64,000 bases of DNA from a phage, in sequence record NC_101838.1. One strand, written 5' to 3'. Shown piece after piece: positions 47,500-60,089 of this stretch (its first letter is position 1; the number at the start of each line of letters is the position of its first letter). The notes beneath the pieces were generated by a model. The model worked only from the letters and a program-made list of their open reading frames with translations. It was not told where the DNA came from and did not search any database. A program made the translations under genes and the position numbers.

Positions 47500-47960
47500 T
47501 CTAAAATGGATTTCCTCCTTTTGATATTTCACCGGGCTGGATATTTTAAAATTCTTAGAAAATCAGAAAATGGATCGAAAACTAAAATGGATTTTTCAGA
47601 GTAGGCGCGACAAGCTGAATAACTCATCCTATCGTTTGCACCATATTCCAGGCCACCATTATAGATTTCCCACACATGCTAACCTCCCTCTACTAGAACT
47701 TCCTCCACTTACCCTTGACCTTCTATGGTAACAATCTAACCGCTATCTTGAAGTTGCGGTGCAGCTTTCCAGGTACTCGATCTACTTTTCATTTCAGGGC
47801 TTGGATTTTCTGAAAATTTTTCTCGATAAATTTCTCAGTACTCGATCTGTTTTTCGTTTTCTGAATCGGATTTTCTGGAAATCGTTCCGGCTCTCAACCT
47901 GAAATTTTTGGGGACGAAATCGATTTTTCGTTTTCAGAAATGGATTTTTAAAATTTCTAT
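47500..47960. repeat. non-coding iteron-like region: at least 5 copies of TGGATTTT(T)C plus a 30-bp direct repeat
   Basis: AAATGGATTT(T)C-type motifs at about 47505, 47570, 47585, 47795, 47870, 47940; CAGGTACTCGATCT...TTTC repeated at 47770 and 47836; no ORF. Confidence 0.5.
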
Positions 47961-48063
47961 ATGGGAATATTTTAGTGGATACTATTTTATAGTAAATTGT
48001 TACGGAGGGTAATTAGCGTGCTAATTAAATTTATTAAATGCGAGGAGTTCTCATTTAGAATCT

Positions 48064-48290
48064 TGAATGATAATCATTCTCGTTTGCAGAATAACGGGCA
48101 GGCCCGGTGATTGTCTCCCGGCCCCTGTTGCCCCGGCTTGTTATTATAGTATCACACAGGACAAAGAAAGCAAGGATTTTTTGCATAAATTTTTAAATGA
48201 TAATGATAACCGTTCTCATTTTATGCAGCGCTCATCCCTGGTGGTTGTCTCCCCCGTCACCGGTGCCTGCCGTCCTTTCGATAGGTATAT
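48064..48290 (+). repeat. two tandem degenerate units, each ending in a GC-rich element containing TTGTCTCCC
   Basis: AATGATAAT...GCAG then CCCGGTGATTGTCTCCC (48103-48119) and GGTGGTTGTCTCCCCCGTCACCGGTGCCTGC (48241-48270). Confidence 0.45.
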
Positions 48291-48473
48291 TGTGCCACCT
48301 GTCGGGGCCGCTGTCAACACTTTTCAAAAAATTTTTCTAACCTGATGCGCTAACCGCTGCAACCTGGCGGGGCCAGCCTGGCAGGACCTAACTGACCAGG
48401 TGGGAGAGGGTGAAATCTTGCAAACCTGGTAGGCCCATGCTGTAGGGTAAACAATTGAAGAGGAGGTACAAAA

Positions 48474-49440: not shown

Positions 49441-49836
49441 ATGAATAAGAACGTACGCCGCATCATGAACGAACTGGCAAACGATGAAAAAATTATTGAT
49501 ATGCATTTGGTCAACATTTGCCGCCGTTGTGTAACATATAACAACCGCGCCGCAAAAGCGCGTGAGATGAACGCAAAAGGCACCTTAAAGCCCTTTCAGG
49601 TGGTTGTAAAATCTATAACTAGCGCAGCAGGCCAGGCGCAGGACCACAACAACGAGAGCGCTAATATTGATCCGTCTTACGTAATGAAACGGATCCGGAC
49701 TTGCAAGAATAAAGAGCAGGTATATAACGTCATAGATTGGCTGGACTCCCTGGGCGATGTGGTTTACAATAGGTTTTCTGCAGCTATCGAGATCCAGCTT
49801 GACAGATTGGACGGGAAAGTACTAAAAACTTATTGA
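49441..49836 (+). CDS. hypothetical protein (131 aa)
   Basis: AAAGGAAAAAG SD-like; ORF track. Confidence 0.55.
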   Translation: MNKNVRRIMNELANDEKIIDMHLVNICRRCVTYNNRAAKAREMNAKGTLKPFQVVVKSITSAAGQAQDHNNESANIDPSYVMKRIRTCKNKEQVYNVIDWLDSLGDVVYNRFSAAIEIQLDRLDGKVLKTY

Positions 49837-49838
49837 GT

Positions 49839-49883
49839 TTATTTTTAGATGGCCTTGACACCAGGGCCATCAATAAAGTAAAC
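49839..49883 (+). promoter_or_regulatory. 45-bp conserved element copy 1 (palindrome GATGGCC-N10-GGCCATC with TTGACA in loop)
   Basis: TTATTTTTAGATGGCCTTGACACCAGGGCCATCAATAAAGTAAAC; near-identical at 50460 and 54194. Confidence 0.5.
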
Positions 49884-49916
49884 TAACCACAGTTGAGCGG
49901 AAAAGGAGGCTTAAAG

Positions 49917-50115: not shown

Positions 50116-50457
50116 ATGACTACTATGACCGCCTCAGAAAAAGCTATGCAGATCGCTGAACTGAAAAAACAGATCGCAGACCTTGAGAATAAGATCGATA
50201 ACTTTGAAATCGACGAGGACAAGTACGACGAAAACTATGATGAATGGTTAGACGAGATCTACGGCGAAATTATGATCGGAAACATTTCTTTTCTTCCGTC
50301 GCGTATCCTCAAGGAGCTAGATCCTATCGCTTACCGCTGCGGATTTAGCGACTACATCGACAGCCTGGATATTGAGGACGATGAAGAATACCAGGAATTA
50401 CAGACAGAGTTAGAAGAAGCAAAAGAAGAGCTTGCGGAGCTGGAAGAAAACGAGTAA
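50116..50457 (+). CDS. highly acidic small protein (113 aa)
   Basis: AAAAGGAGA SD; roughly 30 percent Asp+Glu, predicted coiled coil. Confidence 0.55.
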   Translation: MTTMTASEKAMQIAELKKQIADLENKIDNFEIDEDKYDENYDEWLDEIYGEIMIGNISFLPSRILKELDPIAYRCGFSDYIDSLDIEDDEEYQELQTELEEAKEELAELEENE

Positions 50458-50459
50458 GC

Positions 50460-50504
50460 TTATTTTTAGATGGCCTTGACACCAGGGCCATCAATAAAGT
50501 AAAC
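50460..50504 (+). promoter_or_regulatory. 45-bp conserved element copy 2
   Basis: Identical to copy 1 across about 44 nt. Confidence 0.5.
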
Positions 50505-50546
50505 TTTATACTGTTAACACTGAACTAATGCATAGGAGTTAAAACC

Positions 50547-50792
50547 ATGGCAGCACTAATCACCAAATATTATGCCCCTACCAACACCAAAAGCGCCCGT
50601 ATCATGGTAAAAGGCTTCGGACGTAAAAAGGTGTACACCTGGGATTATGCCTTAGACATGGAAGACAACTACACCAACGCAATGACCGATTTTATTAATG
50701 AACTAAATAAGCAGATCTTGACAAGTTATAAAGTGACCGATATTGCTTATATAGGTGAAGGCGGGATCTGTTTTGTAGGCATTGTGAAATAG
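50547..50792 (+). CDS. hypothetical protein (81 aa)
   Basis: TAGGAG SD. Confidence 0.5.
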   Translation: MAALITKYYAPTNTKSARIMVKGFGRKKVYTWDYALDMEDNYTNAMTDFINELNKQILTSYKVTDIAYIGEGGICFVGIVK

Positions 50793-50866
50793 TTATTTTT
50801 TCGGTGGTCCTGGCTGCAGGGCCATCTATAAAGATAATTTATCAACACCATGAAAGGAGAAAGTAC

Positions 50867-54190: not shown

Positions 54191-54193
54191 AAT

Positions 54194-54236
54194 TTATTTT
54201 TAGATGGCCTTGACTCCAGGGCCATCAATAAAGTAA
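54194..54236 (+). promoter_or_regulatory. 45-bp conserved element copy 3
   Basis: TTATTTTTAGATGGCCTTGACTCCAGGGCCATCAATAAAGTAAA, one mismatch to copies 1 and 2. Confidence 0.5.
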
Positions 54237-54284
54237 ATTTAAACCCTGTTAAAAATACCACGCAGTTAACAAGGAGTGATAGAC

Positions 54285-55496: not shown

Positions 55497-55730
55497 ATGA
55501 TGGAACAAATTAAACGCGCTGAGTCTATTAATGGCAATGTGATCTATTTTGTCAGCAAAAACGAAAAAGGCGTACCATATGCGGCGGTAATAGTACAACC
55601 TGACGGCGATTATTGGTTTACTGTATACGGATCTTATTCTTTCGGGCGTCCGGTTCATGATAGAATTTTGAAAGTAGCAAATCCGACCGGGAAAAATATC
55701 ACAGCAGAAAAATTTTTTGAAAATAGTTGA
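55497..55730 (+). CDS. hypothetical protein (77 aa)
   Basis: AGAGAGG SD. Confidence 0.5.
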   Translation: MMEQIKRAESINGNVIYFVSKNEKGVPYAAVIVQPDGDYWFTVYGSYSFGRPVHDRILKVANPTGKNITAEKFFENS

Positions 55731-55754
55731 CATGACCATATAAGACTGTAATAT
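55727..55754 (+). promoter_or_regulatory. sigma70-like promoter followed by G-rich leader hairpin
   Basis: TTGACA - 16 nt - TAATAT overlapping upstream stop; GGGGC-AACAA-GCCCC downstream. Confidence 0.5.
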
Positions 55755-57138: not shown

Positions 57139-57168
57139 AAAACAGGGCTTGCAATGGTCCTGTTTTTT
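57139..57168 (+). terminator. intrinsic terminator
   Basis: AAAACAGG - 12 nt loop - CCTGTTTT followed by TTTGTTA. Confidence 0.5.
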
Positions 57169-57185
57169 GTTATACTTGTTTCACG

Positions 57186-57233
57186 GCAGGCACCTGGCGA
57201 CGGGGGGGGGAGACAATCACCGGGTGTGCCTGC
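57186..57233. repeat. GC-rich inverted-repeat element with G9 tract (inverted copy of the 48.1/48.25 kb elements)
   Basis: GCAGGCAC...GGGGGGGGGAGACAATCACCGGG...GTGCCTGC; its reverse complement matches 48103-48119 exactly over 17 nt and 48243-48270 closely. Confidence 0.5.
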
Positions 57234-57255
57234 TATATAAAAACTATAAAAACCG

Positions 57256-57284
57256 TTGACATCTGCCAGGTGGTGGGGTAGCAT
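57256..57284 (+). promoter_or_regulatory. sigma70-like promoter
   Basis: TTGACA - 17 nt - TAGCAT; G-rich leader hairpin follows. Confidence 0.35.
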
Positions 57285-58545: not shown

Positions 58546-59149
58546 CTGCTCTTCCCCCTACCATAAACGGCCCTACCTGGAAAGTGGAATAATTGACGAG
58601 CCATCAATCCCACACACTGTACAAACATACATGTAAAATAGCTATTGCATAACCTTTCATTGTGTGGTAGCGGTGCTATTTTTTACCAGTTTTCCTTCCA
58701 AAATTGCACGTAATGCAGCTATTGCATAAATTTTAACCTGATGCATATCTTCAATATCTTGTCAACAAATAAAAATTCTTATAAGTCATACACTTATACC
58801 CCCACAAAAGCGTTCTCTACGTGAAAAATCGGGCATAACTATAGCCGCCAGATCTCAGAATTTACGTACGCTCGCCATTCTATAGCCTGCTAAGTATTTA
58901 TTCCAACCATAGAATAATGGAATAGTCAATACCTGAATAAAATAATTATTCGTTTAAACTGCATAACATAAATCAGCTCAGGTGTCAACATTTTTCGTAA
59001 ACAGTCTTAAATTGTCACTGTGAGTTATCATAAACAGAGAAATCTTTAGTCGTCTAATGTTTACTGTACGTTACTATACTGACTGGAATCATTAGATGAC
59101 TAATAGAAAGATAAGAAATAATTAACGATACAATTATTTTACCTGTAAC

Positions 59150-59400
59150 AATAAGGCAACTATGCAAACGAATGGCATGGCGCGACGGAGTCGCGACATA
59201 ATATAAAAGCAGTAACCATCACCCCCGTGATAGTTTGTCTGCAAACTATTAATCAGATCATAGTTGCCTTGTATTTAGTTAATCATGACATAACAAGCAA
59301 GGCAACTATAGATCTTCTAATAGTTGCCCTGCTTTTATATTATGTCATGCTAATTATAATCAGTGCGATTATTGTCATGCAAACGAATGGCATGGCTTAT
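59150..59400. repeat. non-coding region of nested direct and inverted repeats
   Basis: 20-bp direct repeat ATGCAAACGAATGGCATGGC at 59162 and 59377; 18-bp inverted repeat GACATAATATAAAAGCAG at 59195 / 59329; GGCAACTAT in alternating orientation 4 times; palindrome CGCGAC-GGA-GTCGCG. Confidence 0.5.
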
Positions 59401-59458
59401 CATCTCTGTGTAAACAATCTATGCGTGAACAGTGAAACATGAAATAATAACAGTCGTT

Positions 59459-59515
59459 ATTGTGTCAAGTATTCCGATTGTGTCACCATTGTGTCTAAAG
59501 TGTCATATTGTGTCA
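59459..59515. repeat. iteron array: 5 copies of (T/A)TTGTGTCA at about 10-bp spacing
   Basis: TATTGTGTCA 59459, GATTGTGTCA 59477, CATTGTGTCT 59487, AAAGTGTCA 59497, TATTGTGTCA 59506. Confidence 0.5.
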
Positions 59516-60089
59516 GACAAGTTTTTCTCCTCTTTGTCAAGTGCTGCATGAAAAATTTACAAACTGGTATGGTAGCATTTTTGCGGACCTGTTTACATTC
59601 AGGAGTGTATGTATAATCCTTGTTGTGTGGGCGTTTATACGTCTGGACGGTCAGAAGTCTGCAGGTTAATATCTAATCTATTGGCTGCTAACTATATCCC
59701 ACACAAATGATAAGAAATATAATTGTTATATGCGTAAACTGTAACTCATGTTATCAATCCCTGTATGGATCGCCAGTGGTGCGCATAATGGGTATTATGT
59801 TAAATTGCCCGTAATGATAAAGGTTCTCACAATGATAGGTATTCTCATTCACCCTCACAAAATAGATTGCAAATGTTGTGCCACTGTGTGAACGGCCTCA
59901 CCTATTAATTTGCCTCACTGCCTCGATATTTGAGAATTATTATAAGAATGAGAAGTATTCCCATTCCGTCCGCCTGGCAGCACTCCTGTAGGTCCTGCAA
60001 GGACTCTAGCTTTCAGCTAGACCCTTCGGGCCTCCCTGTAGGTCAGGTCAAAATCGGGGTAGAATTGGGCCTATTCAGATATTTCTGGC

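Follow-up and report, generated by a model that had tools for sequence, protein, structure and literature searches.

A rare repeated element of rV5-like phages as the possible core of an outward-firing promoter–leader–Fur-operator module

Short structured leader elements such as nutL/nutR of lambda and putL/putR of HK022 lie just downstream of promoters, number few per genome, and are oppositely oriented, as the transcription units they serve diverge. T7 phi1.1A/B with its AT-rich region, as well as the T4 R-loop origins ori(uvsY) and ori(34), are transcription-activated phage origins, while short inverted repeats around a multi-kb segment are the hallmark of the invertible segments of Mu (G), P1 (C) and Salmonella (Hin). 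Fur operators normally overlap promoters and do not lie near +55. The rV5-like and phAPEC8-like phages are among the coliphages of broadest host range and serve as components of cocktails for therapy and biocontrol; to our knowledge, their regulation is hardly known. At the ryhB promoter of Escherichia coli, whose operator is a classic 19-bp Fur box, Fur binding is established by experiment (PMC2189734).

The DNA analysed here, a 64-kb stretch that we call the window, belongs to an rV5-like Vequintavirus and is 96% identical to phage nom across 11.5 kb. Its plus strand is the strand of the gene stream, which runs from replication genes through many small genes into a 2.5-kb non-coding zone of converging transcription. 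Two G+C-rich elements, U1 and U2, lie within a non-coding gap of about 1 kb in this co-directional gene stream, and a third, U3, occupies an intergenic spacer 1.3 kb short of its end. We propose, with a probability of roughly 40%, that the U elements are the conserved core of an outward-firing promoter–leader–Fur-operator module rather than recombination boundaries. As judged from its sequence, the module is made of known kinds of parts, namely a host-type promoter and an operator for a host transcription factor, together with an uncharacterised conserved core. What the searchable literature offers on these phages is sigma70 promoters and terminators; it contains neither this module nor a link to Fur, and searches there for Fur boxes in virulent phages or for transcriptomes of these subfamilies bring up nothing on this locus.

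The U1 core is the 17-mer CCCGGTGATTGTCTCCC at 48103-48119 (plus strand). A 17-mer scan confirms what the sequence-only reading had noticed, that this core is the exact reverse complement of 57208-57224, which is the U3 core. The U2 copy, CCTGGTGGTTGTCTCCC, lies at 48237-48253 (plus strand) and carries two mismatches. Allowing up to three mismatches, the 17-mer has three matches in the window against 0.12 expected, a number reached in 0 of 100 shuffles. The inverted similarity extends beyond the 17-mer, covering 35 nt at 83% between U1 and U3 (48091-48125 versus 57202-57236) and 37 nt at 76% between U2 and U3 (48219-48255 versus 57206-57242). Additionally, one indel and one mismatch are all that separates the right part of U2 (48249-48271) from the other arm of the element at 57.2 kb, and the earlier remark that the second unit also matches the reverse complement of that element is borne out. 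Profile HMM searches return three copies only in the window and three homologous copies only in the complete 136-kb genome of nom (E <= 1e-3 in both cases, the next best match having E > 3). The element is therefore rare and not a dispersed repeat, which removes the concern, voiced together with the original observation, that it might be frequent throughout the genome. When the viral contig collection is scanned for exact 14-mers, most of the matches are single chance ones in unrelated contigs.

Read on the opposite strand, referred to here as the core strand, the TTGTCTCCC elements become GGGAGACAAYCACCG, and this GGGAGACAA strand is also that of the proposed promoters. On it, the U1 core (48103-48119, minus strand) reads GGGAGACAATCACCGGG, with the best-conserved 13-mer, GAGACAATCACCG, at 48105-48117, and the U2 core (48237-48253, minus strand) reads GGGAGACAACCACCAGG. 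The U3 core is GGGAGACAATCACCGGG on the plus strand, with its 13-mer at 57210-57222, and sits inside a hairpin at 57186-57232.

Upstream of each of the three cores, on the opposite strand, is a predicted sigma70-type promoter of its own, with 28-37 nt from the -10 box to the core, so that the core would be transcribed in a short leader. Specifically, the predicted U1 promoter (48146-48173, minus strand) consists of a -35 box TTGCTT (48173-48168), a 16-nt spacer and an extended -10 element TGaTACTAT (-10 box at 48151-48146), with 28 nt from the end of the -10 box to the core, and equivalent promoters are present in the orthologues of all genera examined. The predicted U2 promoter (48289-48338, minus strand) reads TTGACA-17-TGgCACAAT (48317 to 48289), its -10 box ending 37 nt ahead of the core, and is preceded by an upstream A/T element that reaches to 48338 and is 93% complementary to an early-class promoter at 55706-55732; like the cassette promoters it is of the early class, but it faces the opposite direction. 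The predicted U3 promoter (57139-57176, plus strand) combines a -35 box TTGCAA (57149-57154), a 16-nt spacer and an extended -10 element TGtTATACT (-10 box at 57171-57176), and is overlapped by a terminator-like hairpin at 57139-57166. The predicted U1 and U2 promoters point leftward and the predicted U3 promoter rightward, outward from the early small-gene cassette, and this arrangement explains the inverted orientation of the copies without recombination. The roughly 9 kb between the copies, described as promoter-rich in the sequence-only reading, indeed contain 34 promoter-like sites against 21.6 +/- 4.1, together with 27 terminator-like sites against 11.1 +/- 3.3, and every promoter-like site scoring at least 10/12 there is on the plus strand.

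The coupling of promoter and core recurs well beyond the window. Among 22 instances from about eight genera, a sigma70-type promoter consensus is present on the core strand in 21, so that a consensus-level promoter of its own, as a small RNA gene would have, accompanies nearly every copy. In 19 instances 26-33 nt separate the -10 box from the core, and in three the gap is 36-37 nt; the -35 and -10 sequences themselves vary by lineage, and their position is kept. Neither the opposite-strand promoters nor the adjacent Fur-type operators had figured in the sequence-only reading.

Beyond two of the window's cores lie palindromes of 19 bp, whose consensus AATGAGAATCATTCTCATT is near the classical Fur box. 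Fur-type palindrome 1, AATGATAATCATTCTCGTT (48066-48084), begins 20 nt past the U1 core and is followed by a degenerate further copy at about 48037-48057, and the overlapping Fur-type palindromes 2, AATGATAATGATAACCGTTCTCATT (48196-48220), lie 18 nt past the U2 core. Behind the U3 core of the window there is no palindrome, and the next promoter (57256-57284) fills that position. The 19-bp Fur consensus GATAATGATAATCATTATC is matched at 48199-48217 with three mismatches (0.04 expected), and the 7-1-7 form of the Fur site at 48068-48082 with two. Overall, the palindrome has six matches in the window against 0.18 expected and six in the whole nom genome against 0.52 expected, the latter being distributed as three in the gap, two in the terminal repeat and one elsewhere. 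Of the 22 instances, 14 have the start of the palindrome at exactly 20 nt past the core, in left-type and right-type modules alike; other distances are 18 nt in U2 and 50-61 nt in three, and the palindrome is absent from four U3-type copies, comprising that of the window and U3 relatives in Phapecoctavirus and Justusliebigvirus. The right-hand copy in other genera also has it.

A second cluster of palindromes, at 59706-59965 (59706, 59831, 59931 and 59947), lies inside the homologue of the terminal repeat. The published terminal repeat of the genus, 458-459 bp in length, resides in the convergent non-coding zone (PMC6658697, PMC6563267, PMC7471380), and that of phage LL12 maps to 59516-59974 of the window with 94% identity over the full 459 bp. 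The presumed genome ends are thus predicted to carry Fur-like operators as well. The same mapping rules out the U elements as genome termini, since the repeat lies away from them.

When the palindrome is compared with 5,426 E. coli genomes, the best match is the operator of the ryhB promoter in the yhhX-yhhY spacer (21/23 identical, 17 nt exact), and local alignment to this operator scores 33-39 against 15 +/- 2.2 in shuffles in six of the seven phages tested. The palindrome of PVP-SE1 and Hena1 has 17 identical nt (AATCATTCTCATTTGCA) in common with the ryhB operator, box 1 of the window differing at one position, and the phage palindromes are clustered and overlapping, like those of host Fur regulons. 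By this resemblance, the palindromes at U1 and U2 are probably operators of the ryhB type. Distinct from ryhB, in which the operator lies over the promoter, the predicted phage operator lies about 55 nt downstream of a well-conserved promoter, occurs in virulent genomes and adjoins an unrelated conserved GC-rich core. The only promoter candidate overlapped by the palindrome is a weak one, TTGAAT-18-CAGAAT, the -10 box of which is not conserved, whereas the conserved promoter lies upstream of the palindrome. The idea that the elements are binding sites for a shared regulator, also put forward in the sequence-only reading, is strengthened by these adjacent operators, and for the core itself such a regulator is possible.

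The similarity to ryhB led nowhere as a clue to a RyhB-like gene, because beyond the Fur box only the 12-mer TTGTCTCGCGAT is held in common. It is shared by the PVP-SE1 form of the core (plus strand) and the -10/+1 junction of ryhB at 12/12 (12/13 in the ESCO5 form), the coordinates being 1548-1559 in contig L208 and about 1547-1559 in L210, against 1490-1505 of E. coli ryhB in L256. Being borderline against shuffles (1-5 of 500), in the opposite orientation and absent from other genera, the 12-mer is probably a chance match and was treated as such. RyhB RNA itself has no significant similarity to the phage loci compared. Borrowed host DNA was likewise rejected as a source of the locus: blastn of 48040-48160 against the 5,426 complete E. 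coli genomes gives no match, and the palindrome alone matches, at ryhB.

BLAST with the U1-U2 stretch retrieves 48048-48134 at 72-89% identity from the non-coding gaps of other groups, namely Phapecoctavirus, Seunavirus, Certrevirus, Mydovirus and Henunavirus, and from related phages of Klebsiella, Pantoea, Pectobacterium, Salmonella and Cronobacter. With a 3.5-kb query, only about 48021-48182, which comprises the palindrome and U1, aligns in other genera or subfamilies (87 records in the 60-80% identity band), and this segment is therefore better conserved than the flanking genes (about 12 neighbours). U3, for its part, lies in a stretch common to the Phapecoctaviruses along with its flanking genes. 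In all genera examined, the gap keeps the order of A+T-rich GATC direct repeats, one to four palindromes, GC-rich element and core-strand promoter, and the geometry of promoter, core, 20 nt and palindrome recurs among the 22 instances from about eight genera. In the window, the repeats are three A+T-rich direct repeats of 65-74 nt at 47763-47948, downstream of the leftward U2 and U1 units, and they look iteron-like; GATC-containing repeats (GGGTTCTCGATCG...TTTTTC...) occupy the equivalent position in the gaps of Seunavirus, Mydovirus, Certrevirus and Henunavirus.

The copies lie 8.3-10.2 kb apart in fixed order and relative orientation in five Vequintavirus and three Phapecoctavirus genomes (ime, DrSchubert, Murica, CM1, slur16, anhysbys, dw-ec and phiWec188), and order and strand are likewise unchanged in HdK5 and nom. 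Mydovirus-type contigs and contig L225 have a second, inverted and weaker copy 7.3-7.9 kb away, with the architecture complete including the palindrome. The only rearrangement found is in phage AlexBoehm (contig L216, about 823-960), where recombination between the direct U1 and U2 cores has deleted 134 nt and left a single hybrid unit, in which the U2 promoter and 5' arm are joined at the common core to the U1 3' arm and palindrome.

On the minus strand, U1 is predicted to fold into a G+C-rich imperfect hairpin (48096-48134) with outer pairs GGGCA...UGCCC, inner pairs CCGG/CCGG and the apical loop GAGACAAUCA (MFE -21.6 kcal/mol, z -0.96), and the U3 hairpin (GCAGGCAC...GUGCCUGC, 57186-57232, plus strand) contains the core and has a z-score of -2.44. 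The corresponding fold-energy z-scores are -0.07 for U2, -3.87 for CR8, -4.98 for the AlexBoehm hybrid, -0.58 for PVP-SE1 and -0.76 for ESCO5. Of the cells in the two-helix structure defined on the core strand, 72.6% are paired, a share that drops to 33-50% if the partner is slid; the covariation score of this structure is matched by 1 of 500 shuffles. The hairpin has A-U to G-C compensation and ten G.U cells that would be mismatches on the opposite strand, and an alignment-free complementarity test over 23 instances sums to 161 pairs against 147.1 +/- 3.4. The inner helix, which pairs in 61% of cells, is poorly kept. Taken together, these comparisons lend moderate support to a core-strand two-helix hairpin with the core in or beside its apical loop. 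Because fold stability is not consistently above that expected from composition and the inner helix is poorly kept, sequence and spacing are better conserved than structure, and a DNA-level site would fit equally well. RNAalifold on the MAFFT alignment recovers the palindrome hairpin only, as indels break the alignment register.

The U elements resemble lambda nut and HK022 put in their predicted promoter-proximal position and in being few per genome and oppositely oriented. The promoter-proximal position suits a leader of this kind and the support from pairing is modest; unlike nut, the U elements have no conserved boxA-like sequence, with GCUAUUCU in U1 and GUCAUAU in several U3 copies. No known RNA family is recognised: Rfam 15 gives no match at gathering score in the window, chance-level matches only at E <= 10 (two loci), and none at E <= 1 in six orthologous gaps. 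The pseudo-ToxI RNA locus of phiTE was discarded as a counterpart, since it lies at 106.7 kb of that genome and not in the homologous gap at 39.6 kb. A terminator scan finds none at U1, U2 or U3, the sole nearby match being the hairpin at 57139-57166 upstream of U3; the tails behind the U hairpins read UAUUCUGC or UAUAUAAAA and have no U-tract. For the short transcript, no terminator of its own is found downstream of U1 or U2, and that from U3 runs into the next promoter and gene.

In the proposed mechanism, host RNA polymerase would produce a short non-coding leader in which the core occupies about +20 to +45, within the G+C-rich imperfect hairpin, and the core would act in cis as a signal that is read from the nascent leader RNA or perhaps from the DNA itself. 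Fe-Fur bound just downstream of the core would impose a conditional block on the outward transcripts, which on the left would head towards the A+T-rich repeats and on the right towards the terminal-repeat zone. Core signal and Fur block together could tie transcription leaving the early region to the iron status of the host. In this scheme, the number and positions of the copies, the promoter consensus, the rigid spacing and the far-reaching conservation are read from the sequences, and we infer that the promoters fire, that Fur binds and that the transcript has a role.

Several other explanations compete with this mechanism. The core could be a double-stranded DNA operator for a phage or host protein that acts with Fur to repress or modulate the three promoters, with its site just past each promoter, the Fur box exactly two helical turns away, and any RNA structure incidental. 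We regard this as unlikely, though not negligibly so: the core and the 20-nt spacer (TGCCYGYYATTC) are kept as sequence, hairpin stability is often no better than in shuffles, the inner helix is poorly kept, and the rigid core-to-palindrome spacing and narrow -10-to-core distance are what an operator would have. On the other hand, the region 5' of the core varies by lineage and yet stays complementary to the conserved 3' segment, G.U pairs are found on the core strand only, the core lacks palindromic symmetry, and the analysis found no candidate for the binding protein. Under iron limitation, the weak promoter TTGAAT-18-CAGAAT, with the palindrome in its 18-nt spacer, might instead produce a Fur-repressed small RNA from the plus strand, whose 5'-proximal CGGUGAUUGUCUCC would serve as an anti-Shine-Dalgarno-like seed and for which the strong opposite promoter would provide an antisense partner. 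This reading, which seems rather improbable to us, draws on the location of the palindrome between -35-like and -10-like hexamers as in ryhB, on the fixed spacing that would put the core at about +10 to +22, on a UCUCC motif complementary to GGAG, and on the perfect complementarity over 17 nt between the U3 plus-strand RNA and a plus-strand RNA crossing U1. It sits poorly, however, with a promoter match of 8/12 with an 18-nt spacer that the promoter scan missed, and with a -10-like hexamer that has no essential A at position 2 in about a third of the instances read (phiTE, L225, L240, KNP2 and the right-hand copy of Mydovirus). Moreover, no terminator or U-tract follows in most genera, and such a promoter is absent from U2 and from the Vequintavirus U3, in contrast to the opposite-strand promoter in 21 of 22 instances. 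That the elements are intrinsic terminators, perhaps bidirectional, or insulators closing the transcription units that flank the cassette is very unlikely, even though they are GC-rich hairpins in intergenic DNA and the homologous hairpin is annotated as a terminator in the phiTE record; a U-tract is missing from both strands in most genera, the scan finds no terminator at any of the three, U1 and U2 fold no better than shuffles, and the loop sequence is conserved, for which a terminator has no need.

The order of promoters, GC-rich transcript, palindromes and A+T-rich direct repeats, found in all genera and in the unrelated contig L228, would also suit a control region of the replication-origin type in the 1-kb gap, with leftward activator or primer transcripts crossing the palindromes into the iteron-like repeats. 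The U elements would then be the G-rich start of these transcripts and the palindromes sites for host factors. Like the T7 and T4 origins, the gap has tandem promoters reading into an A+T-rich repeat region of a large non-coding gap, and in contig L219, where a gp4-like primase-helicase gene follows about 2 kb downstream, palindromes lie among DnaA boxes. In contrast to those origins, GC skew is uninformative here, since the cumulative curve has no inflection at the gap and merely follows the direction of transcription, which in a phage is weak evidence in any case. U3, moreover, lies between genes with no A+T-rich repeats nearby, and no initiator protein was found, so that we give an origin little credence. 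Finally, the sequence-only reading had taken the inverted copies as possible boundaries of a 9-kb cassette acquired or rearranged as a unit, that is, as crossover sites of an invertible or horizontally acquired segment. The bracketing itself is real and old, as eight genomes from two subfamilies keep it, and an inverted repeat of 17 nt exact (35 nt at 83%) at 48.1 and 57.2 kb is of the kind that flanks an invertible segment; the direct copies U1 and U2 have also recombined in AlexBoehm. The acquired or rearranged cassette does not follow from it: the comparison among related phages gives a single orientation in all eight genomes, and this fixed order and orientation across genera argues against it. 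An inverted second copy is similarly placed in Mydovirus-type contigs and L225, and every copy comes with a promoter and in most cases a Fur box, neither of which a crossover site needs. No recombinase or transposase Pfam domain occurs in the ten largest ORFs between or just beyond the copies, and no recombinase is annotated in isim, HdK5 or nom. Unlike Mu G, P1 C and Salmonella Hin, the segment thus has no invertase in the ORFs examined and one orientation across genera and subfamilies, and we consider a role in crossover scarcely credible.

If the promoter–leader–Fur-operator module operates as proposed, it might further be supposed that virulent Enterobacterales myophages (Vequintavirinae and Stephanstirmvirinae) have wired host Fur into their own control DNA and that the core (GAGACAAWCACCG) is the site for a new RNA- or DNA-binding factor. 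This wider supposition is doubtful; in it, ryhB-grade operators stand a fixed 20 nt behind a phage-specific leader element on both flanks of the early region and are also present in the 459-bp terminal repeat. With Fur so wired in, infection would read the iron status of the cell, or perturb it by titrating Fur as genomes multiply, and transcription would be gated into cis-acting regions for replication or packaging. Should Fur really bind, the phages could depend on iron status for their development in the iron-limited gut or in an infected host, and their genomes, as they multiply, could act like a Fur-titration plasmid and derepress iron uptake by the host. If the link to Fur fails, the module is still a well-delimited target, both for mapping promoters and leaders and for engineering these phages.

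The locus is also one in which a non-coding module, better conserved across genera than the surrounding genes, now passes for a hypothetical protein. A 92-aa ORF (48067-48345, plus strand) spans U1, U2 and the palindromes, and the U1-U2 stretch is annotated as a plus-strand hypothetical protein in several records, including rV5 (ORF198), Gotham and HdK5, while the reverse-strand promoters are annotated in none of the records examined. We set aside a coding function for this stretch, since the ORF begins inside a palindrome without a ribosome-binding site and is broken by the 134-nt deletion in AlexBoehm. The annotation of ORF198 and its equivalents is, on these sequence features, probably a mis-annotation.

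Several further observations concern the parts of the module and their surroundings. The AlexBoehm hybrid folds far better (z -4.98) than either parent unit, and its composite make-up is like that of U3. Outside Vequintavirus, the position of U2 is held by another conserved GC-rich block (...TACCGGCGATCCACCTTCC...GTTAGCCCCGCCTTTTCGCCGTGGGGTGGCG...) with a strong leftward promoter of its own, TTGACA/TTGCAA-17-TATAnT, and CTTTACAAA repeats on its flanks; it lies at 1600-1760 of L208, 1310-1470 of L213, 1330-1480 of L212 and 1620-1760 of L210, and has no Rfam match. The Fur-type palindrome is also present in unrelated viral contigs (L219, 1200-1360; L229, 7030-7140; L223, 1546-1670; L228, 800-1000). 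In L219 the accompanying DnaA boxes include three exact TTATCCACA, in L229 and L223 the palindrome forms tandem arrays of four, and in L228, a contig of 116 kb, it follows a promoter and GC-rich transcript in the order of the window's module.

Within the cassette, a 49-nt unit occurs four times (49836-49884, 50457-50505, 50791-50839 and 54191-54239); it consists of a terminator-like hairpin, GGCCTTGACACCAGGGCC, with TTGACA inside, followed by ATAAAGTAAACT, and merges terminator and promoter like the hairpin upstream of U3. The terminal non-coding zone at 59140-59510 is densely repetitive: about five ATTGTGTC-type motifs lie within 59460-59510, the 20-nt sequence ATGCAAACGAATGGCATGGC is repeated exactly and in direct orientation at 59162 and 59377, and there is an 18-nt perfect inverted repeat (59195-59212 and 59329-59346). 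Additionally, about 20 GenBank records (MG0656xx) named 'Campylobacter phage', with C. jejuni as host, are 90-98% identical to this coliphage genus; those retrieved are classified as Vequintavirus and marked UNVERIFIED, and the host labels look doubtful.
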